Shown piece after piece: positions 5,627 through 62,583 of a stretch of 64,000 bases of DNA (positions are counted from its first letter, which is position 1; every line of letters begins with the position of its first letter). Source of the stretch: an uncultured beta proteobacterium (GTDB lineage: Bacteria; Pseudomonadota; Gammaproteobacteria; Burkholderiales; SG8-41); contig CAVOUI010000012.1 of assembly GCA_963699525.1 (NCBI GenBank), positions 47,839-111,838 of the forward strand, written 5' to 3'. The notes beneath the pieces are model-generated. The model had not been told where the DNA came from. It made no database searches and saw nothing but the letters and a program-made list of their open reading frames with translations. Made by a program: the position numbers and the translations under genes.

Positions 5627-7897
5627 TCACTCGAGAACACCGAGGGTGACGATGCTTTGCGGACTATTGCCCGCGGCGAACGGGCTATTCGCGATCGCCG
5701 TTAACGCACCGGTGGCCGGGTTGATCGCATAGGCGGAAATGCTGTTGTTGTTGATACCGGAATTCGCGGCATAGGCGAACCTACCGCTGAAGTCCACGGT
5801 TACCGATCGCGGTTCCAGGCCTGCGGCGAAGGGGCTAGGCAGCGTCAGCGCACCGGTGGCGGCGTTGATCCCGTAGGCGGAGATGCTGTTGGAGCCGTTG
5901 TTCGCCACGTAGACAAACCGTCCGGCCGGGTCGACCGTCACCGACCAGGGCGTCAAGCCCGCGGCGAATGGGCTTCCGGTAATCAGGGTCAGTGCACCCG
6001 TGACGGAGTCGATCGAATACGCCGATACGCCGGAGCCACCGCTGATGTGCGTCACGTAGACGAAGCGCCCGTTTGGGTCCACCGTCACCGACCGAGGGCC
6101 CTGGCCTGTCAGGATTGTGCCTATCGGCGTGAGAGTGCCCGGATTGAGGATCACACCCGTATCAATCCGGTAGGCCGAAACGCTGTTGCCCTGAAAATTC
6201 GCCACGTACACGAACCGCCCGCTCGGGTCCACCGTTACGGAAACGGGGTCGTTCCCAGCGGCATATGGGCTGGCCAGGCCGGCGAGGACCCCGTTATTCG
6301 GGTCGATCGAGTAGGCGGAGACGCTATCGGAGCCAAGATTCGCTACGTAGAGGAACCGCCCGCTCGGGTCGACGGCGACGGACTGGGGCCCGGACACAGC
6401 GGCAACCCCGCCGGAGAACGGGCTTCCCGGCACCGGCGTCAGGGCCCCTGTGCCGGGGTTGATCGCGTAGCCCGAGAGATTGTTGGAACCGGCGTTAGCG
6501 GCGTAGACAAATCTTCCCATCGGATCGGCGGCGACCGATAGCGGCGTGTCCTCCGTGAGGCTGTTGCCGGCCGGCGCCAGAGCGCCCGTGGACGCGTTGA
6601 TCGTATACGCGGAAACCGAGTTGCCCACGCTGTTCGCCGCATAGGCGAATCTGGGCCGGAAGACGAGCGGCGCCGTTCCCTTGCTCACGGCGACGGATCT
6701 CGGAGCCGACTGGGCACTGACGGTTGCGGAACTCGCGAGTGGCGTGAGCGCGCCGGTCGCGTTGTTCAGCCGATACATGGAGACGTCGTTCGAGGCGACA
6801 TTCGTCACGTATACAAACTGACTGCTCGGATCGACGGCAACTGAGCGGGGGCTGCTGCCCGCCGGGAACGGACTTCCACCGACCGGCATCAGCACCCCGC
6901 TGGCCGCGTCGATCGTGAAGGCGGAAACCGTTCCGGAGACCTCATTCGTCGCGTACACAAATTGCCCGCCCGCGTCCACGGCAACGCTGCTGACACCGCT
7001 GCCGGCAAGAAACGGGCTTCCGGCCACGGGCGTCAGCGCCCCGGTGGCCGCGTCGATCCGGTATACGGATACGTTGTTTGAGGCGCCATTTGCCGCCACG
7101 ACGAACCGCCCGCCCGGCTCGACCAGGACCGACTGGAGACCCGATTCAGCGGCAAACGGGCTGCCGGGCACCGGCGTCAGAGCACCGGTGCTGGTGTTGA
7201 TCGAATACGCCAAGATCTTTTTGTCGAGGAGATTGCTGGCCGCCACGTAGGCGAATCGGCCGCCCGGATCCACGGCCACGGAGAGGGGATTGGTGCCCGT
7301 CATGAACGGGCTCCCCGGCGCCGGAGTCAACGCGCCGGTGGCCGCGTTGATCGTGTAGCCGGAGATCGTGTCGGAAAGCTGGTTCACCGCATAAGCAACG
7401 CGCCCTGCCGCATCCACGGCCACGGATATCGGGCTATTGCCTGCAGCGAATGGGCTGCCCGCAACGGCAGTCAGCGCCCCGCTCGTGGGGTTGATCGTGT
7501 AGGCCGCGACGGCGCCCGCGTTGACATTGCTTGCCACAAAGACAAACCGGGCGTCGGCGTCCATCGCGACGGACGCGGCTCCCGGGATACCCGCGACGTA
7601 GCCGCGTGGCCGCAACTGGCCGGTGGCGGCGTCGACGGCGAAGATGGAGACTGAACTTTCCTGACCGTTGGCCACGTAGGCAAAGCGCGGCGCAGTTACC
7701 GTGGCTGGCGGCGGCATTCCACCGCCACCGCCACCGCCACCGCCTCCACCACCGCACGCAGCGAGGGCGATGGAAACCAGGAGCAGCGATGTCTTGAGAA
7801 ATCGGTGTTTCAATCCGTTCGCGATCCCGGATTGCCCCGGCGGATCGTCGAGGGCAGGGCAGTACGAAATCGCGGCTGAGTTTTTCGGTTCCATCAT
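5627..7897 (-). CDS. Lipoprotein with ~14 YVTN/lactonase-type beta-propeller repeats (two predicted 7-bladed propellers); the likely true start is TTG at 7813
   Basis: Repeats of the form YVAN..SN.VS.Y.ID..TGALTPV.GSPF.AG..P.SVAVDPSGRF.Y; lipobox LLLVSIALAAC followed by a G12 linker. Confidence 0.8.
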   Translation of the reverse strand: MMEPKNSAAISYCPALDDPPGQSGIANGLKHRFLKTSLLLVSIALAACGGGGGGGGGGGGMPPPATVTAPRFAYVANGQESSVSIFAVDAATGQLRPRGYVAGIPGAASVAMDADARFVFVASNVNAGAVAAYTINPTSGALTAVAGSPFAAGNSPISVAVDAAGRVAYAVNQLSDTISGYTINAATGALTPAPGSPFMTGTNPLSVAVDPGGRFAYVAASNLLDKKILAYSINTSTGALTPVPGSPFAAESGLQSVLVEPGGRFVVAANGASNNVSVYRIDAATGALTPVAGSPFLAGSGVSSVAVDAGGQFVYATNEVSGTVSAFTIDAASGVLMPVGGSPFPAGSSPRSVAVDPSSQFVYVTNVASNDVSMYRLNNATGALTPLASSATVSAQSAPRSVAVSKGTAPLVFRPRFAYAANSVGNSVSAYTINASTGALAPAGNSLTEDTPLSVAADPMGRFVYAANAGSNNLSGYAINPGTGALTPVPGSPFSGGVAAVSGPQSVAVDPSGRFLYVANLGSDSVSAYSIDPNNGVLAGLASPYAAGNDPVSVTVDPSGRFVYVANFQGNSVSAYRIDTGVILNPGTLTPIGTILTGQGPRSVTVDPNGRFVYVTHISGGSGVSAYSIDSVTGALTLITGSPFAAGLTPWSVTVDPAGRFVYVANNGSNSISAYGINAATGALTLPSPFAAGLEPRSVTVDFSGRFAYAANSGINNNSISAYAINPATGALTAIANSPFAAGNSPQSIVTLGVLE
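7705..7757. repeat. (CCACCG)n/(GGN)n hexanucleotide simple-sequence repeat encoding the poly-Gly linker of the propeller lipoprotein
   Basis: ccaccgccaccgccaccgccaccgcctccaccaccg. Confidence 0.8.
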
Positions 7898-10550: not shown

Positions 10551-10725
10551 GGACCCGGCCGCGGGGTCAGACCCCCTTGATGCGGTAGTGGCAGCCCGCC
10601 GCGGACTCGAACCGCGAACCTTCCGCTTCAGAGGCGGACGCTCTACCAATTGCGCTAGCGGGCAGCAGGTTTGCCGGACCGGGGTCCGGTCTCGTTCGAC
10701 CGTGCGCTGTCGTGGGAAGTTCGAA
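10551..10725. repeat. Direct repeat copy 2 (tRNA-Gln plus leader and trailer)
   Basis: ~90% identical to 671-846. Confidence 0.8.
10589..10664 (-). tRNA. tRNA-Gln (anticodon CTG), second copy
   Basis: Identical to the 710-785 gene. Confidence 0.8.
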
Positions 10726-10795: not shown

Positions 10796-11389
10796 CTGGA
10801 GATCGCCCGATACCAGGTCGATGAGCGCCGGGCCGCCGCCCTTGTAGGGCACGTGCGTCATGCGAATGCCGGCGAGCCGCTGGAAGTTCACCCCCGCGAG
10901 GTGATCGAGCTGGCCGGGCCCGGAGCTGCCGAAGCGCGTCTCATCCGTGCGCTTCTTCGCCCACTCGATGAATTGCCTCGGGTCGCGCACACCGATCGCA
11001 GGATTGACCACCATCACGTTGATGATCTCCGCCGCGCGCGTGATCGGCAGGAAATCGCGCTCCGCGTCGTACGGGAGCTTCTTGTAGAGCCACTGGCTGA
11101 TCGCGAGCGGGCCCACGCCGCCCACCAGCAGCGTGTAGCCGTCGGGCTCGGCCTTGGCGAGGAGATCCGTCGCCAGGCGCCCGGCGGCGCCCGGGCGGTT
11201 GTCGATGACGATCGTCTGGTGGAGCTGCGCGGCGAGCGGCTCGGCGACGGTGCGCCCGATGGTGTCGGCGGCCCCGGCCGCCGGGAACGGAATGAGGATG
11301 CGGATCGGGCGCACCGGGTAGCTCTGCTGCGCCCATGCCGGTGCCATCGCGATGGACAGCAGGACAGCGGTCCATGTTGCTTTCTTCAT
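10745..11389 (-). pseudogene. tctC: TctC-family substrate-binding protein, 3'-truncated at ~residue 200; the reading runs into the AT-rich filler
   Basis: Normal N-terminal ~200 aa; the C-terminus LSTYVVLFSRSFPF is read-through of the filler, and ~120 aa are missing. Confidence 0.7.
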
Positions 11390-13083: not shown

Positions 13084-14058
13084 TCATTGCTGAAGCCCTG
13101 CAGCTTCAGCCACCCGTACCCACTTCGCGATCTCGCCGCGGATGAACGCGCCGAAGTCGGCCGGGCTCTGCGTCATGGGGCGCGAGCCGTCCGCCGCCAT
13201 ATGGTTCACGACGTCGGGCATTGCGGCGGCCTTGACGAGCTCGCCGTGCAGGCGTTCCACGATCGCGGGCGGCGTGCCCGTCCTGACGGATATGCCGTTC
13301 CAGATGAGGTGCTCGAAGCCCTTCACGCCGGATTCGGCGATCGTCGGATATTCCGGCAGCAGCGGCCAGCGCTCGGCGCTGCCCATGCCGAGGTTGCGGA
13401 TGCGGCCGGCCTTCACGTGCGGCAGCGATGAGATCGGGTTGGTGAACGCGCAGGTGACCTCGCCGGAGAGGAGGGCGGTCGTGACGAGCGCGCTGCCCTT
13501 GTAGGGAACGTGCAGGAGGTCGACGCGGGCCTCGATCCGGAACAGCTCCCCGCCGAAGTGGGAGCCGCTGCCGATGCCCGCGGAGCCGAAGGTGATTTCT
13601 TTCGGCCGGGCCCGCGCCAGGGCGATGAACTCCTTGACGGAGCGCACCGGCAGCGACGCATGCACGATCAATGCGCCCGGCACCACCGCGAGGCGCGTCA
13701 CCGGCGCGAAATCATTGACCGGATCGAACGGCAGCTTGCGGACGAGCGCAGGCGCCGACGTGAAGGACGTGCTGACGAGATACAGCGTGTAGCCGTCCGC
13801 CGGCGCCTTGGCGACAGTTTCAGAGGCGATGACGCCGGCCGCTCCCGGACGGTTCTCCACGATCACCGGCTGGCCCAGGCTCGCCGTGAGCCGTGTGCCG
13901 ATCAGGCGCGCGGTCGTGTCGTTGCCGCCACCGGGGGCGAGCGGAACGATGATCCGCAGCGGCTTGGCGGGGTAGCCCTGCGCGTGCGCTACCCCGAGGC
14001 AGAAGGCAGAAGTCAGAAGGCAGAAAGCAACGAAGCGCCTCACGATCTTCTCCTTCAT
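13084..14058 (-). CDS. tctC: TctC-family substrate-binding protein
   Basis: Signal peptide, IIVPLAPGGGND, ENRPGAAG. Confidence 0.85.
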   Translation of the reverse strand: MKEKIVRRFVAFCLLTSAFCLGVAHAQGYPAKPLRIIVPLAPGGGNDTTARLIGTRLTASLGQPVIVENRPGAAGVIASETVAKAPADGYTLYLVSTSFTSAPALVRKLPFDPVNDFAPVTRLAVVPGALIVHASLPVRSVKEFIALARARPKEITFGSAGIGSGSHFGGELFRIEARVDLLHVPYKGSALVTTALLSGEVTCAFTNPISSLPHVKAGRIRNLGMGSAERWPLLPEYPTIAESGVKGFEHLIWNGISVRTGTPPAIVERLHGELVKAAAMPDVVNHMAADGSRPMTQSPADFGAFIRGEIAKWVRVAEAAGLQQ

Positions 14059-20220: not shown

Positions 20221-21189
20221 TCAGTCGACCTTGAGCCCCGCAGCGCGCACCACTTCGCCCCAGGCGCGCATTTCGGCCGCCACGTACTCCTTGAACTGGG
20301 CCCGCGTGAACGGCGCCGGTTCGGCCGAGTTCGCGGTGAGCATCTCCTTGACCTTCGGCTGCGTCACCGCCTTCATCACTTCCGCGTACATCCGGTCGAG
20401 GATTTTCGGGGGCACGCCGGCGGGCGCGAAGAACCCGGTGTTGCATCCCATCACGAATCCGGGAAGGGATTCTGCGAGGGTCGGGGTGTCCGGATAGAGC
20501 GGCGAACGCTTCGGCAAGGTGATTCCGAGAAGCGTCAGCCTTCCCGACTTGATGTGGGGAATGGCGGCGGAAATGCACGAGAAGTACATGCCGGCTTCTC
20601 CGCCGACGAGGGCAGCCGTGGCCGGGCCGCCCCCCTTGTAGGGCACGTGCAGCGGCTTGATCCCGGTCAGGCGGTTGAACCGCTCGCCGGTCAGGTGCGT
20701 GATCGAGCCCGGCCCGGAAGAGGCGAAGGAGAACTCGGGGTGCGACTTCGCGTACTCGATCAGTTGCGCGGTCGTCCTGATGCCGTACTTGGGATTGACG
20801 ACCAGCACCAGCGGCGATTGCGACGGCAGCGCGATCGGCTCGATGTCCTTCCGGGGGTCAAAGGTCAGCTTCGTGTAGAGCGTCGCGCTGATGGCGTGGC
20901 TCGGCACGTCGGTCATCAGCATCGTGTAGCCGTCCGCGTTCGCCTTGGCCGCGATGGAGACACCCAGCGTGCCGGCCGCGCCCGGACGGTTGTCGGGGAT
21001 CACCTGCTGCCCGAGGGATTCGGTCAGCGCGATGCTGAGGCCGCGGGCTATCACGTCGGTGACGCCGCCGGGAGGCCACGGGATGATGAGGCGGATCGGG
21101 CGCGACGGATACTGCTGAGCCTGCGCCCAGGGGGCCATCAACAGAAGCAGGGCTGGGAACAGGAATCCTGCGGCTTTTCTTGCGTTCAT
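20221..21189 (-). CDS. tctC: TctC-family substrate-binding protein
   Basis: Signal peptide, LIIPWPPGGVTD. Confidence 0.85.
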   Translation of the reverse strand: MNARKAAGFLFPALLLLMAPWAQAQQYPSRPIRLIIPWPPGGVTDVIARGLSIALTESLGQQVIPDNRPGAAGTLGVSIAAKANADGYTMLMTDVPSHAISATLYTKLTFDPRKDIEPIALPSQSPLVLVVNPKYGIRTTAQLIEYAKSHPEFSFASSGPGSITHLTGERFNRLTGIKPLHVPYKGGGPATAALVGGEAGMYFSCISAAIPHIKSGRLTLLGITLPKRSPLYPDTPTLAESLPGFVMGCNTGFFAPAGVPPKILDRMYAEVMKAVTQPKVKEMLTANSAEPAPFTRAQFKEYVAAEMRAWGEVVRAAGLKVD

Positions 21190-32982: not shown

Positions 32983-33052
32983 TAGTTGGAGCGGGAGTCG
33001 AACCCGCGACTCGTCGATTACAAGTCGACTGCTCTACCTACTGAGCTATCCA
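32983..33052 (-). tRNA. tRNA-Thr(TGT)-like remnant: the D, anticodon and T arms are intact but the 5' acceptor strand is missing or unpaired (pseudo-tRNA)
   Basis: Anticodon arm GTCGA-CTTGTAA-TCGAC, T arm GCGGG-TTCGACT-CCCGC; it starts directly after the CCA of the next tRNA; acceptor pairing is only 4 of 7. Confidence 0.4.
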
Positions 33053-33125
33053 TGGCGACGGATATGGGAGTCGAACCCATGACCTCGGTCGTCCGGACCG
33101 CGCTCTACCGCTGAGCTAATCCGTC
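33053..33125 (-). tRNA. tRNA-like gene with a 5-nt anticodon loop (CGGAC); identity undetermined
   Basis: Perfect acceptor GACGGAT/ATCCGTC, D arm GCTC/GAGC, T arm ATGGG-TTCGACT-CCCAT, G73 and CCA; the anticodon stem CGGTC/GACCG closes a 5-nt loop. Confidence 0.5.
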
Positions 33126-33256
33126 CAACATCCGCCGCTCCCGCGCCGCGGTACACGCCAAGCCGATGTTTCAGGCCGAGCGCGCCAGGGAGGACTCACG
33201 AGCCTCGCCCGCTGCGATGTTTCGCGTTCACGACGAATTCTGTGCAGGGATGTGGC

Positions 33257-33323
33257 TGGGGTGATCCGCCGGATTCGCACCGGCACTCCCGGAGTCACGG
33301 TCCGGTGTGCTGCTGTTACACCA
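33257..33323 (-). tRNA. Degenerate tRNA-His-like remnant
   Basis: Anticodon arm CCGGA-CCGTGAC-TCCGG (GTG), T arm GCCGG-TGCGAAT-CCGGC, 3' GGATCAC-C-CCA; the D arm and 5' acceptor are degraded. Confidence 0.35.
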
Positions 33324-33337
33324 GGATCTCCGTTGTC

Positions 33338-33413
33338 TGGCTGTCCAGGCAGGCTTCGAACCTGCACGCCTCGCGTTAACAGCGCGCCGCTCTACCGGTT
33401 GAGCTACTGGACA
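33338..33413 (-). tRNA. tRNA-Asn (GTT)
   Basis: Canonical cloverleaf, loop CTGTTAA, CCA encoded. Confidence 0.85.
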
Positions 33414-33418
33414 AAAGC

Positions 33419-33493
33419 TGGTACCGGCCCACGGAATTGAACCGCGCGTCGCCCGCTTATCGGGCGGGTGCTCTGCCGTTGAGCTAGACCGGC
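33419..33493 (-). tRNA. tRNA-Ile (GAT) with C33 in place of the universal U33
   Basis: Anticodon loop CCGATAA; acceptor has two G-U pairs; T loop TTCAATT. Confidence 0.7.
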
Positions 33494-33498
33494 GAAAC

Positions 33499-33573
33499 GG
33501 GCGAGGGCGCCTGGATTCGAACCAGGGACATCCGGCTTCAGAGGCCGGCGTTCTACCGCTGAACTACGCCCCG
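33499..33573 (-). tRNA. tRNA-Gln (CTG), distinct in sequence from the 710 and 10589 copies; no CCA encoded (CCC follows)
   Basis: Anticodon arm CCGGC-CTCTGAA-GCCGG; T arm CCTGG-TTCGAAT-CCAGG; 1:72 is a C-C mismatch. Confidence 0.7.
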
Positions 33574-33577
33574 ATAC

Positions 33578-33653
33578 TGGCGCTTCCCCTCCGTTACGAT
33601 CGGAGCTCTCCGGCTCTTCAGGCCGGCGCTGTCACCAGATCAGCTAGAGAAGC
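33578..33653 (-). tRNA. tRNA-Phe (GAA) with a T-loop ATCGTAA (A54/T58 swapped relative to the canonical T54/A58)
   Basis: 76 nt; loop CTGAAGA; otherwise a regular cloverleaf with CCA. Confidence 0.7.
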
Positions 33654-33659
33654 CTGTGT

Positions 33660-33738
33660 TGGTGCCCCGGGCGTCGATTCGAACGCGCGTCCTCCTGCGT
33701 ACTAGGCAGGCGCTCTTCCGGCTGAGCTACGCGGGGCG
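33660..33738 (-). tRNA. Defective tRNA-like gene with anticodon AGT (Thr-like): one extra nucleotide before the D stem and an unpaired T stem
   Basis: Anticodon arm CCTGC-CTAGTAC-GCAGG; the T-loop TTCGAAT has non-complementary flanks GCGCG/CGACG. Confidence 0.4.
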
Positions 33739-33815
33739 TGGTGGTTCCGCTTCGATTCGAACGAAGGATTCCCGGGTTATGAGCCCGGTGCTTTGAGCCG
33801 CTAAGCTACGGAACC
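33739..33815 (-). tRNA. tRNA-Met (CAT), elongator type (G1-C72 paired)
   Basis: Perfect cloverleaf GGTTCCG...CGGAACC-A-CCA. Confidence 0.9.
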
Positions 33816-33822
33816 TCGTGTC

Positions 33823-33898
33823 TGGTACTCGGTGATGGTCTCGAACCATCGACCTCCTGTTTGTAAGACAGGCGCTCTGCCTTCTGAGCTAACCGAGC
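33823..33898 (-). tRNA. tRNA-Val (TAC)
   Basis: Loop CTTACAA; canonical arms; CCA. Confidence 0.9.
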
Positions 33899-33899
33899 A

Positions 33900-34121
33900 T
33901 GGTCGGCGCGGCAGGAGTTGAACCTGGCCCGCGGAGGGCGGAGCAGTGCCTGCGCCCCTTGGCGTAGGTGCGACCCCGTAGCGGGCCGAGCGCGCCGGTT
34001 TCATTCCGCGGGCCTATGCACGCCTTTGCGGTCGCATCCCCATGAATGGGGCCCCTGCTCCACGCTCCGGCGCGCCTTTCTGATTAAGAGTCAGCTACTC
34101 TGCCTGTTGAGTTACGCGCCG
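33900..34121 (-). tRNA. Split or interrupted tRNA-Lys (CTT): the 5' part (34075-34121: acceptor, D arm, anticodon arm) and the 3' part (33900-33927: T arm, acceptor, ACCA) are separated by ~147 bp of non-tRNA sequence
   Basis: 5' acceptor CGGCGCG pairs 7 of 7 with 3' CGCGCCG; anticodon arm GCTGA-CTCTTAA-TCAGA; T arm CCAGG-TTCAACT-CCTGC; the insert starts CGCGCCGG (a copy of the 3' acceptor) and contains the hairpin CCCCATTCATGGGG. Confidence 0.5.
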
Positions 34122-34129
34122 TGAAATCG

Positions 34130-34205
34130 TGGCGACGCTGGCGGGAGTCGAACCCGCGGCTTCTCGCTCGACAGGCGAGCACTCTGGCCGCTGAGTTACA
34201 GCGTC
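34130..34205 (-). tRNA. tRNA-Asp (GTC)
   Basis: Loop CTGTCGA, G73, CCA. Confidence 0.9.
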
Positions 34206-34214
34206 GTTCGAAAA

Positions 34215-34293
34215 TGGCGCCCCCGGAAGGATTTGAACCCTCGACCTCGCGGGCCGTGACCGCGCGCTCTGCGATTCCCTGAGCTACGGGGGC
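34215..34293 (-). tRNA. tRNA-Arg (ACG) with an 11-nt D loop and an atypical anticodon loop TCACGGC (C33)
   Basis: Perfect acceptor GCCCCCG/CGGGGGC; anticodon stem CGCGG/CCGCG. Confidence 0.65.
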
Positions 34294-34299
34294 AATTGT

Positions 34300-34376
34300 T
34301 GGTCTCGCCGGCAGGATTCGAACCTGCGGCCTCCCCGTCCCGAACGGGGCGCGCTGACCTGCTGCGCTACAGCGAG
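34300..34376 (-). tRNA. tRNA-Pro (CGG)
   Basis: Loop TTCGGGA, A73, CCA. Confidence 0.85.
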
Positions 34377-34379
34377 AAA

Positions 34380-34451
34380 TGTTCCCGGCCGGAATTGAAC
34401 CGGCATCTGCGGCTTGAAAGGCCGCCGTCCTCACCATTAGACGAAGGGAAC
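34380..34451 (-). tRNA. tRNA-Glu (TTC), no CCA encoded
   Basis: Glu-type 3-bp D stem GTC/GAC, loop CTTTCAA, T arm GCCGG-TTCAATT-CCGGC. Confidence 0.8.
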
Positions 34452-34455
34452 CCTT

Positions 34456-34529
34456 TGGGGCGGGCAGCGAGGATCGAACTCGCATCTCGACGCTGGCAAC
34501 GTCGCGCTCTACCGTTGAGCCATGTCCGC
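34456..34529 (-). tRNA. tRNA-Gly (GCC)
   Basis: Loop TTGCCAG, T arm GCGAG-TTCGATC-CTCGC, CCA; one A-C mismatch in the acceptor. Confidence 0.8.
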
Positions 34530-34625
34530 CCGGTATTGGCCACATCCCAAGTTGTAAAAGAACATTCCGCTTCATCCGGTCGCTATGCCGGAGCGGGACG
34601 GAAGCGCTTTGCTCCCGTCGAAATC

Positions 34626-34702
34626 TGGTGCCCCACCCGGGATTCGAACCCGGAGATCCATGTTTCTGAAACATGCGCGTATGCCGATTCCGCCAGCGGG
34701 GC
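34626..34702 (-). tRNA. tRNA-Leu (CAG)-like gene with a 5-nt variable loop (no long variable arm) but a Leu-type D arm
   Basis: TG-GCG-GAATCGGCATA-CGC D arm as in bacterial tRNA-Leu; anticodon arm CATGT-TTCAGAA-ACATG; variable GATCT; A73; CCA. Confidence 0.55.
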
Positions 34703-35240: not shown

Positions 35241-36227
35241 CTATTCGGCTTTCACGCCGGCGGCCTTCCAGACCTTCGTGCGCGTCGCGATCTCCTCGTG
35301 CACGAGCTTGTCGAACGCTTCCGGGGTGCTGCGCTTCACCGCCGCACCCAGGCCGGCGATGCGTTCGCGCGGTTCCGGCAGGTCGAGAACGCGGCCGGCT
35401 TCCGCGTTGAGCAGGTTGACGATCGGACGCGGTGTCCGGCCCGGCGCGAGCATTCCGTACCATCCTTGATACTCGAAGTTGGGCAGGCCGGCTTCCGCGA
35501 TGGTCGGCACGTCGGGCAGCGCCGGCGCGCGCTCGACGGTGGTCACGCCGAGCGCGAGCACCCGGCCGCTCCGGATGAGCGGCGACGCCGCGAGGACCGG
35601 CGAGAGCACGAACTGCACGCGGCCCGACATGACGTCGGTCAGCGTTTCCGGTGAGCCCCGGTAGGGCACGTGCACCGCGCCGATGCCGGCGGCGAGCTTG
35701 AACAGCTCTGCGCCGTAGTGCGGTCCGCTGCCGATCCCGGTGGAGGCGAAATTGAGCTGGCCCTTCTTCTCGCGCGCGAGCGCGATCAGCTCCTTGACCG
35801 ACTTCACTCCGAGAGAGGGCCCGACCACCAGCACGAGCGGCGTCGTCGCGAACTGCGTGATGCCGGAGAAGTCCTTGATCGCGTCGAAAGGGAGCTTTCC
35901 CGCGAAGAGCGCGACGCTGCCGGCAAAGTTGGAGCCGGTCACGAGGAGCGTGTGGCCGTCGGGGGCGGCCTCGGCGACGATGCTGAAGGCGATGATCCCG
36001 CCCGCGCTCGGGCGGTTGTCGATCACCACCGGGCGGCCCCAGCGCTCCGAGAGCTTGGGGCCGACGATGCGCGCGATGATGTCGGTCGCGCTGCCGGCAG
36101 TGAACGGCACCACGATTCGAACCGGCCGGGTCGGGTAGCTAGCATCCTTGGGAGTCGCCTGAGCACCCGCTACCGCGGAAATGCCCGCGGCGGCGAGTGC
36201 CAGCAGGACATGCAGGGCCTTGCGCAT
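35241..36227 (-). CDS. tctC: TctC-family substrate-binding protein
   Basis: Signal peptide, IVVPFTAGSATD. Confidence 0.85.
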   Translation of the reverse strand: MRKALHVLLALAAAGISAVAGAQATPKDASYPTRPVRIVVPFTAGSATDIIARIVGPKLSERWGRPVVIDNRPSAGGIIAFSIVAEAAPDGHTLLVTGSNFAGSVALFAGKLPFDAIKDFSGITQFATTPLVLVVGPSLGVKSVKELIALAREKKGQLNFASTGIGSGPHYGAELFKLAAGIGAVHVPYRGSPETLTDVMSGRVQFVLSPVLAASPLIRSGRVLALGVTTVERAPALPDVPTIAEAGLPNFEYQGWYGMLAPGRTPRPIVNLLNAEAGRVLDLPEPRERIAGLGAAVKRSTPEAFDKLVHEEIATRTKVWKAAGVKAE

Positions 36228-46443: not shown

Positions 46444-47407
46444 TCACTGGGGCGGGATGCCCGCCGTCTTGATCACCTTCGCCCACTTGGCGATTTCTGC
46501 TTCGAGATAACCGGCGAACTCGTCCGCGCCGCCTTGCGCGGGCTCGATCCCCAGGGCGAGCAGCCGCTCCTTCAGGTCCGGGGCCGCCAGCGCCTTCACG
46601 CTCTCGTCGCTCAATCGGATGATAACCGGCCGCGGCGCCGCCGCCGGCGCGAGCATCCCGTACCACGAGGTCGCATCGTAGCCGGGGAGCCCGGCTTCGG
46701 CCAGCGTCGGCACCTCGGGGAGGACCGCGCTGCGGCGCGTTCCCGAGACGGCGATCGCGCGCAAATCGTCCCTGCTGGAGCTGGGCCATCACGGCGGCAG
46801 GCGAACTGAACATCAGCGGCGCTTCGCCAGTCATGACCCCGATCAAGGCCTGGGAGCTGCCCTTGTACGGCACGTGGACCAGGTCCACTTTCGTCATCGA
46901 GACGAACAGCGCCATCCCGAGGTGCGTCATGCTGCCGACTCCCGCGCTGCCGTAGTTGAGCATTCCCGGGTTGCGCCGGGCGAGCGCGATCAGCTCCCTG
47001 GCCGATTTCATCGGCAGGGAAGGATGAGCGACCATGACCAGCGGGCCGTATCCCACCAGCGTTACGGCCGCGAGGTCCTTGCGCACGTCGAAACCGAGCT
47101 TGGCGAAGAGGGACGGCATCGCGACGGTCGCGTTTGCGAAGAGCAGCGTGTAGCCGTCGGGCGCGCTGCGGGCGACGGACTCGGAGGCCAGCGTGCTCGC
47201 CGCGCCGGGCCGGTTTTCGACGACGACCTGCTGCCCGAGCGGCCCCGAGAGCTTCTGCGCGAGCGCCCGGGCGGAGATGTCGGTCGCCCCGCCGGCGGTG
47301 AAGCCGACCACGAGGCGGACGGTGCGTGCCGGGTACGGCTGCGCGGCGCTCCCGCCGGAAAGGAGCAGGCTTCCCGCAAACGCGAGAGGTACCGCGACCG
47401 GCTTCAT
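46444..47407 (-). pseudogene. tctC: TctC-family substrate-binding protein, frameshift at ~46770
   Basis: N-terminal 210 aa in ORF 45959-47776; the C-terminus in ORF 46444-46764. Confidence 0.7.
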
Positions 47408-58241: not shown

Positions 58242-58676
58242 ATGCGATTCATGATCTTGGTGAAAGCGACGCGGGACACAGAGGCGGGCCGGTTCCCGCG
58301 GGACAAGGAGCAGCTGTTCGCCGACATGGCTGCGTACCATGAGGAGCTGCAGAAAGCCGGTGCGCTGCTCGACGGGTCGGGGCTGCAGCCAAGCGCCAAG
58401 GGCTGGCGGGTGAAATACTCGGGCGAGAAGCGTACTTTCGTGGACGGACCCTTCGCGGAGACCAAGGAGCTTGTCGCGGGCTACACGCTGATTCAGGTGA
58501 AGTCGCTGCAGGAAGCGATCGAGTGGACCAAGCGCTTTCCCAACCCCGCCGGACGGAACGGCAAAGCCGAGATCGAGGCGCGCCAGCTTTACGAGCTGGA
58601 GGATTTCGAGCCCGTGCTCGGCAAGGACTCGGATGCGATTGAACGCTTCCGCGAGATGGGCATCGGGACGAAGTAA
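58242..58676 (+). CDS. YciI-like (YCII-related, DGPF) domain protein
   Basis: [14 protein letters not shown]. Confidence 0.75.
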
Positions 58677-58704
58677 TAGGGATCGGTACGGGGAGCACGA
58701 CGCC

Positions 58705-58815
58705 ATGCAGAAAATCACGCCTTTCCTGTGGTTCGACAGCCAGGCGGAAGAGGCCGTGAACTTCTATGTCTCGATCTTCAAGAATTCGAAGATTGCTGCA
58801 AATGTCCAGGATTGA
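58705..58815 (+). pseudogene. N-terminal 36-aa fragment of a PhnB/VOC-like protein (truncated)
   Basis: [21 protein letters not shown] followed by an early stop. Confidence 0.4.
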
Positions 58816-58872
58816 CATTGGTGCCCTGCAGCGGGCGCTCGCCGGCAATTGAATCAGAAAAAGAGAGGGCCC

Positions 58873-59412
58873 ATGCTCAAGATTCTCGGTATCGCCGTCG
58901 CCATCGCCGTTGCCATCGCCGTTGCCAGCGTGCTCCTGTACGCCGCAAACAAGCCCGATGCCTTCCGTGTCGAGCGCGAGACGAGCATCCAGGCGCCGCC
59001 GGAAAGGGTCTTTCCGCTCATCAATGACCTGCGCGCATTCAACGCGTGGAATCCCTTCGAGAAGAAGGATCCGAACCTCAAGGGGCATTACAGCGGCCCC
59101 TCAAGCGGTCGCGGCGCGGCGTATGCTTTCGATGGAAACAAGGACGTGGGCAAGGGCAGCATCGAGATCCTGGAGTCTTCGCCTCCATCGAAGGTCACGA
59201 TGAGGCTCGCCATGGTCGAGCCGTTCAAGGTCCGGAATACGGTCGAATTCACGCTCGTTCCCGCCGGCGGCGCGACCCACGTGACTTGGGCCATGCAGGG
59301 ACCGGCGCCGTTCATCGCGAAAGTCATCCACATGTTCATCGACATGGACCGGATGATCGGCAAGGACTTCGAAGCCGGCCTCGCCAGCCTCAAGGCGATG
59401 GCCGAGAAGTAG
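58873..59412 (+). CDS. SRPBCC-family protein with an N-terminal TM anchor
   Basis: AGAGAGGG Shine-Dalgarno before the ATG at 58873. Confidence 0.65.
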   Translation: MLKILGIAVAIAVAIAVASVLLYAANKPDAFRVERETSIQAPPERVFPLINDLRAFNAWNPFEKKDPNLKGHYSGPSSGRGAAYAFDGNKDVGKGSIEILESSPPSKVTMRLAMVEPFKVRNTVEFTLVPAGGATHVTWAMQGPAPFIAKVIHMFIDMDRMIGKDFEAGLASLKAMAEK

Positions 59413-59443
59413 TTGTCCCGAATTTCACGTCAGGAGAGCGCAG

Positions 59444-59905
59444 ATGTCCAAGGTCAATCCGGTCCCCGACGGGATGCACACCGTCACGCCGCACCTGGTT
59501 TGCGCCGGCGCGGCCGACGCGATCGAGTTCTACAAGAAAGCGTTCAACGCCGTGGAGGAAGGACGATTGCCCGGTCCGCAGGGGCGGATCATGCACGCGA
59601 TGATCCGCATCGAGGGCTCGGCCGTGATGCTGGTCGACGAAATGCCCGAGTGGGGCGCGCTCGGCCCGAAGTCCCTCAAGGGCTCGCCGGTCACGATCCA
59701 CCTCTACGTCGAGGATGTGGACGCGTTCGTCAAGCGCGCGGTCGCCGCGGGGGCGAAGGTCACGATGCCGGTGGCGGACCAGTTCTGGGGCGACCGTTAC
59801 GGGAAGCTCGAGGACCCGTTCGGCCACCACTGGTCCGTCGCTACTCACCTGCGCGACGTGACCGAGCAAGAGATGCAGCAGGCCATGAAGAAGATGGGCG
59901 GCTGA
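59444..59905 (+). CDS. VOC family (PhnB-like) protein
   Basis: 153 aa. Confidence 0.75.
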   Translation: MSKVNPVPDGMHTVTPHLVCAGAADAIEFYKKAFNAVEEGRLPGPQGRIMHAMIRIEGSAVMLVDEMPEWGALGPKSLKGSPVTIHLYVEDVDAFVKRAVAAGAKVTMPVADQFWGDRYGKLEDPFGHHWSVATHLRDVTEQEMQQAMKKMGG

Positions 59906-59922
59906 ACGGACGGGAGAACGGA

Positions 59923-60346
59923 ATGAAGTACTTGTGCCTGATTTGCGCCGAGAAGGTGATGGAGCAGATGACCGAAGCCGACGCCGAGCGGCATTTCGAG
60001 GAGTATCGGACCTTTCATCGCGGACATCCGGGCGAGCGGCCACTACCTCGGGTGCAACCGGCTGCTGCCGCCCGACAGCGCGACCACGATTCGCGTGCGC
60101 CAGGGCAAGGTTGCGATCACCGACGGACCCTGGGTCGAGACCAAGGAGCAGCTCGGCGGCTATTTCCTGATCGAGGCGCGGGATCTCGACGAGGCGATTA
60201 AAGTAGCGGCGCGGATACCGGGCGCCTGGATCGGCTGCGTGGAGGTGCGACCGGTTGCGGAGGATGCACGGACGCTCGAAGTCCTCGGGCTTCCCGGCGG
60301 AAGCGCGGCGGCGCGCGCTGGGATAGCTGCGGAGAAACGCAGGTAA
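59923..60346 (+). pseudogene. YciI-like protein with a +1 frameshift at 60016
   Basis: Removing c at 60016 restores ...EEYRTFIADIRASGHYLGCNRLL...[14 protein letters not shown]. Confidence 0.65.
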
Positions 60347-60370
60347 ACGGGAATCTGAAAGGAACGAACG

Positions 60371-61543
60371 ATGGCACGCAAATCGAGAAAGTCAGCAGCC
60401 CGCAGGCCGGGCGCAGGCCGCACCCTCCTCATGGTGGCGACGCGCAAGGGCGCGTGGCTGTATCACGGCGACGCGGCGCGGAAGACCTGGCGGGCGGACG
60501 GACCGCATTTCCTCGGCCACAACGTGAGCCACCTCGTGCTCGATCCGCGCGACGGGAAGACGTTGCTCGCCGCGGCGAAGACCGGTCATCTCGGGCCGAC
60601 GATCTTCCGCTCCACCGACCTCGGGAAGAGCTGGAAGGAAGCCGCCCGGCCGCCGGCATTCGCCAAGGCCGCCGACGGCAAGGAAGGCCGCTCGGTGGAT
60701 CACACCTTCTGGCTTGCGCCGGGCCGCGCGCAGGACCGCGACGTGTGGTACGCGGGCACCTCGCCGCAGGGCCTGTTCCGCTCGGCGGACGGCGGCGTCA
60801 CATGGGAGCCGTTCTCGATCATCAACGACGACCCGCAGTTCCGTGAATGGATGGGCACCCAGCAGGACGGCACGCCGGACGGGCCGAAGCTGCACTCGAT
60901 CATCGTGGACCCGCGCGACGGCCGGCACCTCTACATCGCGATGTCGGGCGGCGGCGTGCACGAGTCCACTGACGGCGGCCGCACCTGGAAGACGCTCATC
61001 AAGGGAATGGATGTCGTCGAGGGCTTCGGCTTCGACCCGGCCAAGCCCACTTTCCACGACCCGCACTGCGTGCGGCTCTGTCCCACCAACCCGGACCGCC
61101 TCTACCAGCAGAATCACTGCGGCATCTACCGGCTCGACCGTCCCTCCGACACCTGGGTGCGCATCGGCAAGAGCATGCCGAAGCAGGTCGGCGACATCGG
61201 CTTCCCGATGGTCGTGCACCCGCGCGACCCGGACACCGCGTGGGTATTCCCGATGGATGGCACGCAGGTTTGGCCGCGCACGAGCCCCGGCGGCAAGCCC
61301 GCGGCTTACGTCACGCGCAACGGTGGCACGACCTGGCAGCGGCTCGACGCCGGGCTGCCCAGGAGCCAGGCGTGGTGGACCGTAAAGCGCCAGTGCATGG
61401 CGGCGGATGCGTGCGATTCCGTCGCACTCTACGTCGGCAACAGTGGCGGGGAACTGTGGATGGGGCGCGACGAGGGCAAGCGCTGGTCCTGCATCGCGCA
61501 GCACCTGCCGGAGATCTACGCGGTCGAGACTGCGCAGCTGTAG
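60371..61543 (+). CDS. BNR/sialidase-like (Sortilin-Vps10 type) beta-propeller protein
   Basis: Repeated S-x-D-x-G-x-T-W motifs. Confidence 0.7.
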   Translation: MARKSRKSAARRPGAGRTLLMVATRKGAWLYHGDAARKTWRADGPHFLGHNVSHLVLDPRDGKTLLAAAKTGHLGPTIFRSTDLGKSWKEAARPPAFAKAADGKEGRSVDHTFWLAPGRAQDRDVWYAGTSPQGLFRSADGGVTWEPFSIINDDPQFREWMGTQQDGTPDGPKLHSIIVDPRDGRHLYIAMSGGGVHESTDGGRTWKTLIKGMDVVEGFGFDPAKPTFHDPHCVRLCPTNPDRLYQQNHCGIYRLDRPSDTWVRIGKSMPKQVGDIGFPMVVHPRDPDTAWVFPMDGTQVWPRTSPGGKPAAYVTRNGGTTWQRLDAGLPRSQAWWTVKRQCMAADACDSVALYVGNSGGELWMGRDEGKRWSCIAQHLPEIYAVETAQL

Positions 61544-61559
61544 CTATAAGTGCTGCACG

Positions 61560-61817
61560 ATGAAAGTCCTGATTCCCAGCGCGCTGCGCTCCTACACCGA
61601 GCGCGGAGAAACCGAAGCGAGCGGCGCGACGCTCGCCGCGGTGCTGGTGGACCTGGAGCGCCACTACCCCGGGATCCGCTTCCGCATGATCGACGAGCAG
61701 GACCGGATCCGGCGCCACATCCGAATTTTCGTCAACGGCGAGCAGGCGCGCGACCTGACGCAGCCGCTCGACGCGAAAGACGAAGTCATCATCGTCCAGG
61801 CGCTCTCCGGCGGCTGA
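61560..61817 (+). CDS. MoaD/ThiS-family sulfur-carrier-like protein ending in GG
   Basis: 85 aa; C-terminal ...ALSGG. Confidence 0.7.
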
Positions 61818-61836
61818 GACGGCAAGGAGGTTGCTC

Positions 61837-62583
61837 ATGAAATATTTGCTGCTGTGCTGCTTCAATGAGAAGGGGTGGAATGCGATTCCGGAGCCGCAGC
61901 GCGACGCGATCATGCGGGATTACGGCGCGCTGATTGAGAGCCTCCACAAGAGCGGTCACCACCTGACCACCGGCAAGCTGCAGCCAACGGCGGCTGCCGC
62001 CACCGTTCGCAGCAGGAACGGCAAGCCGGTCGTGAGCGACGGGCCTTTCGCCGAAACCAAGGAACATCTCGGCGGCTACCACCTGATCGAATGCCGGGAC
62101 CTGGACGAAGCGATCGCGATCGCGCAGCGCATCCCGACGCTTCCTTACGGCGGCGCAGTCGAAGTGCGCGCGCTCGAATACCTGAGAGGATTCACTATGA
62201 AATACGTATGCCTCGGATACATCGAGCCGGGCAAGTTCGAGAACATGTCCGAAAGCGAGCGTAATGCTTTCGTGGACGGATGCTTCACCTACGACGACGT
62301 GCTGCGCAAGAACGGGCATTTCACGGGCGGCGAGGCGCTCCAGCCCGCCAGCAGTGCCGTGACGCTGCGCCACCAGGGCGGCAAGGTAATCGTCACCGAC
62401 GGCCCCTATGCCGAGACCAAGGAGCAGCTCGGCGGCATCCTCATCCTGGAGGCGAACGACCTCAATCACGCCATCCAGCTCATGTCGAAGCACCCGGGCG
62501 TGCGCGCGGGTCCCTTCGAGATCCGCCCCGCTGCGGACCTGGCCGGCATGATCCGCGACAGCGAACAGCGTCGCGCGAAGTAA
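61837..62583 (+). CDS. Tandem YciI-like fusion (two DGPF domains in one frame; the second begins at an internal Shine-Dalgarno plus ATG at 62197)
   Basis: [14 protein letters not shown] and [14 protein letters not shown]; no stop between the domains. Confidence 0.65.

Follow-up and report, generated by a model that had tools for sequence, protein, structure and literature searches.

Does a bacterial tRNA-Lys(CTT) gene whose two parts stand apart on the chromosome carry a novel type of intron, or has the gene been broken by something that moved into it? The question is raised by one locus in the 64-kb stretch of DNA analyzed here, which we call the window. On the minus strand, from 34121 downward, the locus contains a CGGCGCG acceptor strand, a D arm and a CTT anticodon arm, and a T arm, the complementary CGCGCCG and ACCA end it at 33900, as a first-pass annotation had described. 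That annotation had left a choice between an interrupted gene, a rearrangement junction, and a permuted or armless arrangement. Since relatives carry the empty site, the first of these is right; since the flanks together make up a single gene, the second is not. The tRNA-Lys gene was most likely broken by a mobile repeat, rather than split by a novel type of tRNA intron.

The interrupted tRNA-Lys gene and its empty-site alleles

Using ARAGORN and Rfam, we found that the locus fills the single large gap (33899-34129) of a minus-strand tRNA array (Table 1). One further array tRNA, at 32987-33052, was recognized by Rfam and not by ARAGORN. Other odd members of the array are a 73-nt tRNA-Ser(GGA) that lacks the long variable arm usual for this tRNA in bacteria, a tRNA-Thr(AGT) and a 79-nt tRNA-Arg(ACG). 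The chromosomal neighbours of the array are PBP1B, a Crp-type regulator, an SPFH protein and several TctC/Bug receptors, and the G+C content is about 66%. An exact-sequence lookup of PBP1B returned no recorded protein.

The nearest homologs of the SPFH protein belong to uncultured Burkholderiales MAGs, and the comparison loci (L002 to L006) were fetched through the SPFH orthologs that they encode. The amino acid identity of the SPFH protein to that of the window is 95% in L002 and 85% in L003 and L004. In these three loci, a syntenic but variable array lies upstream of the SPFH gene, and an intact tRNA-Lys(CTT) directly follows tRNA-Asp, which is the slot of the interrupted gene in the window. 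The array has about 17 genes in the window, 8 in L002 and 13 in L003 and L004, and is absent from L005 and L006. Both halves of the interrupted gene match the intact tRNA-Lys of the relatives in the same array slot almost base for base, far beyond chance. The insert-deleted alleles that the first-pass annotation had proposed to look for in relatives are therefore present.

Alignment with the intact alleles showed that the window allele is an intact allele plus a clean 146 nt in the 5' strand of the T stem. The insertion point is nt 49/50 or 50/51, between GC and AGG, and a 1-nt ambiguity (a C) allows the insert to be read as 34071-33926 or equally as 34072-33927. The first-pass annotation had placed about 147 bp between the anticodon arm and the T arm. 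The insertion and the interruption stand, but the length is 146 nt, both by alignment with the uninterrupted alleles and by in-silico deletion, and the position is inside the T-stem 5' strand, not in the variable region. When the insert (34071-33926) was deleted in silico, a canonical 76-nt tRNA-Lys(CTT) was obtained and accepted by ARAGORN; its acceptor stem has 7 bp, its T stem is GCAGG/CCUGC, and its CCA is encoded. In the interrupted sequence, ARAGORN called no tRNA.

Near the insertion, the window and the intact alleles differ in the variable loop (AAGGC versus AGGTT) and in the T loop (TTCAACT versus TTCAATT). A scan of viral contigs with the tRNA exons found an intact phage tRNA-Lys (L001, the numbering reference), and since its variable region is AAAGGC, the AAGGC loop is a normal variant. 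A metagenome scan with a degenerate 5'-exon pattern returned at least 126 ordinary tRNA-Lys genes, and no interrupted tRNA-Lys was present among the at least 126 matches listed.

The T-stem pairs 49-65 and 50-64 are contacts of EF-Tu. Since a 146-nt domain would emerge from these very pairs, the interrupted gene is predicted from its sequence to give no working tRNA, and its product is probably non-functional. The exons show no decay relative to L002, so the insertion may be recent.

L-arrays are horizontally acquired tRNA arrays that vary between relatives and include pseudogenes (PMC8421152). The host array resembles L-arrays in being dense and co-oriented, in its number of tRNA genes, in its variable content and in being missing from some relatives. 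A term search of the same paper found no array member interrupted by a REPIN-like repeat. In a horizontally acquired, redundant array of this type, the loss of tRNA-Lys would be tolerated because the array tRNAs would be supernumerary.

Table 1. Positions of the tRNA-Lys(CTT) locus, its insert and related features (window coordinates unless a comparison locus is named)
Feature	Position	Strand	Content	Basis
Host tRNA array (L-array type)	32987..34702	-	Leu, Gly, Glu, Pro, Arg, Asp, Lys (interrupted), Val, Met, Thr, Phe, Gln, Ile, Asn, His, Ser	ARAGORN and Rfam
tRNA-Lys(CTT) 5' part, nt 1-50	34072..34121	-	Acceptor 5' strand, D arm, anticodon arm, variable loop AAGGC, T-stem G49 C50	Sequence; alignment to intact alleles; ARAGORN on repaired gene
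Net 146-nt insertion versus empty-site alleles	33926..34071	-		Alignment; in-silico deletion
tRNA-Lys(CTT) 3' part, nt 51-76	33900..33925	-	T-stem AGG, T loop TTCAACT, CCTGC, acceptor CGCGCCG, discriminator A, encoded CCA	Sequence; alignment; ARAGORN on repaired gene
Repeat module 1, 59 nt	34017..34075	-	Nested hairpin	R1, 85.1 bits, E ~1e-18; covariation
Variable spacer between modules	33989..34016	-		Poorly conserved columns 59-95 of full-length alignment
Repeat module 2	33926..33988	+	Diverged inverted partner of module 1	R1, 39.3 bits, E 2.5e-07, filters off
Intact tRNA-Lys alleles aligned	L002:5096-5170; L003:4862-4938			
Singleton modules at gene junctions	L131:5212-5270, L155:319-377 (murC-ddl); L132:4875-4933; L138:4050-4108; L152:3380-3438; L146:2024-2193			

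A dispersed repeat made of two inverted modules

The internal CGCGCCGG and the palindrome CCCCATTCATGGGG that had been noted in the insert are both present on the minus strand. The insert had been thought to begin with a second copy of the 3' acceptor strand. This stretch is instead the 5'-terminal consensus (GYGYGCCGRA) of a dispersed repeat that is found outside tRNAs.

The distribution of the repeat was analyzed by scanning the insert 21-mer GCAGGGGCCCCATTCATGGGG against one genome per GTDB species. The 21-mer occurred at 28 other loci in 23 proteobacterial MAGs, several of which gave 2-3 loci. The titles of the carrier MAGs name Burkholderiales, Betaproteobacteria, Gammaproteobacteria, Steroidobacteraceae and one "uncultured Bordetella," and the setting is that of soil and groundwater Burkholderiales. 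Among the carrier records are CP070643.1 (4.24 Mb), CATOSA010000008.1 and DASZQJ010000160.1. None of the 28 other loci is in or beside a tRNA gene. Including that of the window, there are 12 full-length copies of 147-153 nt, which can be aligned end to end with 75-93% identity; between the window copy and any of the other 11, the identity is 77-82%.

Within the 64-kb window and the 1.7 Mb of fetched loci, blastn-short and nhmmer found no second copy of the insert, and the possibilities that the insert is a local repeat, a MITE or a scrambled tRNA were rejected on this basis. When the locus and the insert were compared by blastn with phage and plasmid collections, nothing or only chance 28-40-nt matches (E ≥0.1) were found, and scans of viral contigs with four insert 18-22-mers gave no homolog. 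The match in L127 was discarded as a viral homolog, being a chance 18-mer (20 nt by blastn) within a coding region.

We then used R1, a covariance model built from the 59-nt 5' module. In each of the 12 full-length copies, that of the window included, R1 also matches the 3' domain, on the strand opposite to the 5' module. The element, about 150 nt long, is therefore built of two oppositely oriented copies of one palindromic module with a variable spacer between them. The model gave 61 matches in 0.33 Mb of family loci and none in 0.6 Mb of unrelated metagenome contigs. In the 64-kb window it found one doublet only, and in L002 to L006 none. It also found further doublets (L129), singletons and alternating clusters (L145, in the order + - + -; L134; L149), with several modules per 8-kb locus in L134, L145 and L149.

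Covariation supports this structure. Among 22 copies of the module, 97.6% of the cells were paired, and 9 of the 18 pairs had compensatory changes. Double changes were seen in 7/7 outer pairs (for example, GGCCTGC/GCAGGCC, GATCGGC/GCCGATC and GCGCGCT/AGCGCGC), and the 33 compensatory cells observed compare with 7.9 in shuffles, none of the 500 shuffles being as high. Module 1 holds the invariant 32-nt core GGAGCAGGGGCCCCATTCATGGGGATGCGACC, the invariance of which is partly imposed by the search word. Module 2 is backed not only by its R1 match but also by CG/GC covariation in helices 5-6 of the full-length alignment. Under the two-hairpin model, the full-length copies were 96-100% paired, with CG/UA, GC/AU and CG/GC exchanges. 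In contrast, the single long closing helix with a multi-branch junction that is the minimum free energy (MFE) fold of the single sequence showed no covariation beyond shuffles and was rejected. The first 4 nt of module 1, GCGC (34075-34072), are also tRNA nt 47-50, and because of this coincidence the exact junction and the mechanism at the tRNA site are ambiguous.

Variant modules at L145:7487-7543 and L151:261-328 keep the GCA…TGCGACC frame around other apical hairpins (GGGGCCCGCTTGCGGG and GGGGCCCCGAACGTTTTTTGTTCGGGG, respectively), which indicates that the family is broader than the 21-mer used to find it. The family appears to be undescribed, with no match in Rfam and with a core sequence that was not found in a literature search. 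On the other hand, the kind of element, REP/REPIN-type miniature mobile DNA, and the outcome, a gene interrupted by a repeat, are already known.

Other repeats were observed in the window. Direct repeats of 154 nt, 95% identical and 9.9 kb apart (693-846 and 10572-10725), each contain a tRNA-Gln(CTG), at 710-785 and 10589-10664. Diverged tandem repeats at 5674-7575, with a period of about 144-150 nt (about 48-50 codons), probably mark the gene of a repeat-domain protein. At 58425-62474, a 95-nt coding-like block is present four times within 4 kb, in diverged form (63-73% identical), which suggests a cluster of small paralogous genes.

Insertions in TctC/Bug genes and at other sites

Seven of the 12 full-length doublets are inside genes (the tRNA-Lys gene, five TctC genes and one helicase gene), and the others are intergenic. 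The five complete copies in TctC/Bug genes are those of L144, L147, L148, L150 and L153, and a sixth TctC gene has a truncated copy (L143). All six are antisense and enter at the same codon, just before the conserved PDGYT motif. The halves of the five TctC genes with complete copies are otherwise intact. In four of these genes the two halves are in different frames, and in the fifth they are separated by an in-frame stop, so that translation of the insert in frame with TctC is ruled out.

Exact removal of the doublet as delimited by the model (153, 154, 154, 152 and 152 nt) restored 5/5 TctC open reading frames. The restored junctions read VAK/APDGYT, AAK/APDGYT, VSK/EPDGYT, VAR/PADGYT and VAR/QSDGYT (the slash marks the junction), summarized as VA(K/R)x(P/A/S)DGYT. 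Since exact deletion of the doublet restores the reading frames, the insertions were precise and occurred without target duplication; none was seen at the tRNA site or at the five TctC sites. The TctC-borne elements are 86-93% identical, compared with 62-72% for the host flanks. Being far more alike than their flanks, the elements indicate that the same site of different paralogs was targeted repeatedly.

The window itself has five TctC/Bug paralogs, at about 10839-11224, 13496-13878, 20633-21015, 35656-36041 and 46860-47239, which share conserved DNA blocks. All five are uninterrupted at the PDGYT-coding site that is targeted in other genomes.

The helicase copy, at L149:2029-2177, is a full doublet in the sense orientation and in frame within the UvrD_C region of an intact 1198-aa UvrD/PD-(D/E)XK helicase-nuclease open reading frame (L149:1052-4648, minus strand). 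This doublet carries the flanking repeat sequence CCCCCTCTCCC…GGGGTGAGGGG and resembles the tolerated coding insertions of Rickettsia palindromic elements (RPE). Four copies lie within CCCTCTCCC…GGGAGAGG-type repeats. By inspection, 8/12 full-length copies have a flank ending in A(A/G)GG beside the module end, among them the tRNA site (AAAGG) and three TctC sites (CAAGG), and these flanks hint at a short target motif.

Singleton modules were observed exactly at the junctions of translationally coupled genes (Table 1). On their flanks, the beginning of the downstream gene (ribosome-binding site, start codon, first codons) is duplicated in diverged form over about 20 to 60 nt. A short open reading frame begins in the upstream duplicate, runs through the module in a frame that varies, and ends with a stop codon that overlaps the true start codon (for example, ATGA at ddl). 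Such long flanking duplications are predicted by neither the REPIN model nor the MITE model.

Proposed mobility, alternative explanations and known systems

The strand on which each module folds was analyzed from its wobble pairs. The non-Watson-Crick cells of module 1 were 10 G·T and 1 A·C. Those of module 2 were 3 A·C and no G·T on the plus strand of the element, which are G·T on the module's own strand. With G·T wobbles confined to the strand to which a module belongs, the two modules fold, and are selected, on opposite strands, and a single RNA transcript cannot satisfy both. The asymmetry argues for recognition of single-stranded DNA hairpins, as in Y1/HUH systems, the small counts being support and not proof.

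IS200/IS605 elements and miniature PATEs move by Y1/HUH single-strand transposition, and the cognate RAYT of a REP family is a single-copy Y1 transposase (PF01797) that is usually REP-flanked. Neither a RAYT nor another transposase was found among 19 neighbouring open reading frames (3-8 kb per locus), all of which are ordinary housekeeping genes. This is expected if a single-copy RAYT sits elsewhere in the genome.

We consider it likely that a REP/REPIN-type non-autonomous mobile DNA repeat inserted into the T stem of the array tRNA-Lys(CTT) gene. In the proposed sequence of events, the repeat of about 150 nt, with its two inverted 59-nt modules and spacer, would have entered after tRNA nt 49/50. 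The element would move as single-stranded DNA and would be mobilized in trans by a putative Y1/HUH-type transposase (a RAYT or an IS200/IS605-like enzyme) that recognizes the hairpin which a module forms on its own strand.

The mobile repeat might have moved in another way, either as a MITE of a DDE transposase or by recombination or gene conversion between short homologies. Such a route would account for element ends that are inverted repeats (86% complementary) and for their resemblance to the targets (GCGC at the tRNA; ACC-GCGGACGG versus ACGCCCGACGG in TctC). It would also be consistent with the lack of a Y1 transposase near the copies. The long duplications of the downstream gene start around the gene-start singletons are predicted by neither model. 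However, insertion is specific for site and orientation, the wobble pairing of the hairpins is strand-asymmetric, and inverted doublets and alternating clusters are typical of REP/BIME families. The lack of target-site duplication at the tRNA site and the five TctC sites also speaks against this route, in particular against a DDE-type MITE, for which terminal inverted repeats and a short target-site duplication would be expected; no duplication was seen at these 6 sites, and the complementary ends show no covariation. We therefore regard these other routes as unlikely, and single-stranded transposition of a REPIN-type element remains the preferred reading.

It was also considered that the 146 nt could be an intron removed at the RNA level, by self-splicing or by RNase III or another endonuclease together with RtcB, so that a functional tRNA-Lys is kept. 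This idea draws on the perfect tRNA left by exact removal, on the undecayed exons, on an MFE prediction in which the insert folds as a closed compact domain and leaves the cloverleaf intact, and on a variable loop beside the insert that differs from that of the relatives so as to extend pairing with the insert. On the other hand, copies of the family are antisense in TctC genes, sense in the helicase open reading frame and intergenic, with none in other tRNAs, and the two modules are selected on different strands. The end-to-end helix that would present the splice sites shows no covariation, and even at E ≤10 the Rfam search suggested by the first-pass annotation returned only partial tRNA-derived matches, with no intron or ribozyme family at the locus. 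Removal of the insert as an intron is thus very improbable.

Two specific kinds of intron could be ruled out. Group I tRNA introns are found in the anticodon loop and have a U before the 5' splice site, a terminal G, a P1-P9 core and a length of about 200 nt or more. Here, the last base of the 5' exon is G or C instead of U, that of the insert is C instead of G, 146 nt is too short, and the T-stem position, the Rfam result and the context of the other copies agree with the earlier judgment that this is not a group I intron. An intron of the bulge-helix-bulge type was excluded by context and by inspection of the predicted folds, in which the junctions do not allow a 3-4-3 bulge-helix-bulge.

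We give slightly less credence still to a REPIN-derived insert that is nevertheless removed, with host nucleases cutting the hairpins and an RtcB-type ligase rejoining the tRNA halves. If it were true that the insert is removed from the pre-tRNA, it would be the first protein-dependent (non-group-I) bacterial tRNA intron, born from a transposable repeat. A milder speculation is that the freely covarying outer helix of the module, whose first bases match the host flank at the tRNA site, could act as a target-site guide.

Expression of the chimeric gene without splicing, either as a tRNA with a giant domain or as tRNA-like fragments cut by RNase P/Z, is hardly plausible. A sensitive Rfam search of the locus gave a T-armless tRNA-like match at 34067-34121 (33.4 bits) and a weak mascRNA-like match at 33905-33956 (25.2 bits, against a gathering score of 42.5), and the acceptor, D and anticodon arms are kept in the MFE fold of the interrupted gene. 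However, both Rfam matches reflect chance complementarity of the repeat consensus ends to GC-rich acceptor strands. The T-armless match arises because the first bases of the insert, CGCGCCG, happen to pair with the acceptor strand, and with it the permuted or armless option falls away. In addition, no other member of the family is in a tRNA, the relatives keep a plain tRNA, and the fold z-score is just -2.3. Finally, an assembly artefact, in which a repeat was collapsed or chimerically joined within the array, would fit a multi-copy insert from what is probably a metagenome-type assembly, but it is next to negligible given that the flanks are exactly the two complementary halves of a single tRNA gene, that their junction is precise to the base and that the same kind of precise insertion is found independently in other assemblies.

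If a mobile REP/REPIN-type repeat did enter the gene, the apparently exotic split tRNA is an ordinary event in a dispensable tRNA gene, and this explanation guards against its annotation as a new intron or a permuted tRNA. If the transposase can be identified, the family would offer natural before-and-after sites for target choice by REP-type elements, and, in uncultured Burkholderiales, a marker for Bug paralogs and L-array tRNAs that have become pseudogenes.

Several known systems can be compared with this family. Insertions of RPE are characteristically in frame and tolerated. These elements were reportedly described by Ogata et al. in 2000 as selfish repeats in protein and RNA genes. The family resembles RPE as a palindromic repeat of about 100-150 bp that is found in coding genes and in an RNA gene, with the L149 copy read through in frame; unlike RPE, its five TctC insertions break the frame or add a stop.

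Among the tRNA introns that have been described are group I introns in Bacteria and non-canonical introns in Archaea and red algae (PMC4033280, PMC4090602). The insert resembles tRNA introns as an intervening sequence in a tRNA gene whose exact removal restores the tRNA, and it resembles some archaeal tRNA introns in lying outside position 37/38. It differs from them in having no bulge-helix-bulge, group I core, U(-1) or terminal G, in its bacterial host, and in not being tRNA specific, since the element is also found antisense in other genes.

With IS200/IS605 elements the family shares the absence of target duplication, the fixed site and orientation, and hairpins on one strand, to which the G·T asymmetry corresponds. 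However, the hairpins here are inverted copies of one module and not distinct left and right ends on one strand, and the target tetranucleotide of IS200/IS605 has only a suggested counterpart in the A(A/G)GG flanks (8/12, by inspection).

A REPIN is defined by a pair of palindromic modules in inverted orientation with a spacer between them (PMC3337134); REPs are about 20 nt long, and the REPIN of P. fluorescens is 89 nt (PMC3337134, PMC3116915). The modules here are 59 nt, compared with about 20-40 nt for classical REPs, and no GTAG-type conserved 5' tetranucleotide was noticed. In addition, many copies are intragenic (TctC, helicase and tRNA), unlike extragenic REPs, and no cognate RAYT was found in the 3-8 kb around the copies, unlike REPINs with a RAYT. 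The likeness to REPIN/REP-BIME elements is in the inverted pair of modules with a variable spacer, the singletons and alternating clusters, and a dispersed, multi-copy, non-coding repeat that keeps its structure despite sequence change and has no internal transposase. Among such elements, the family stands out by its long modules, its invariant 32-nt core, and its repeated, precise and duplication-free targeting of one TctC/Bug codon.
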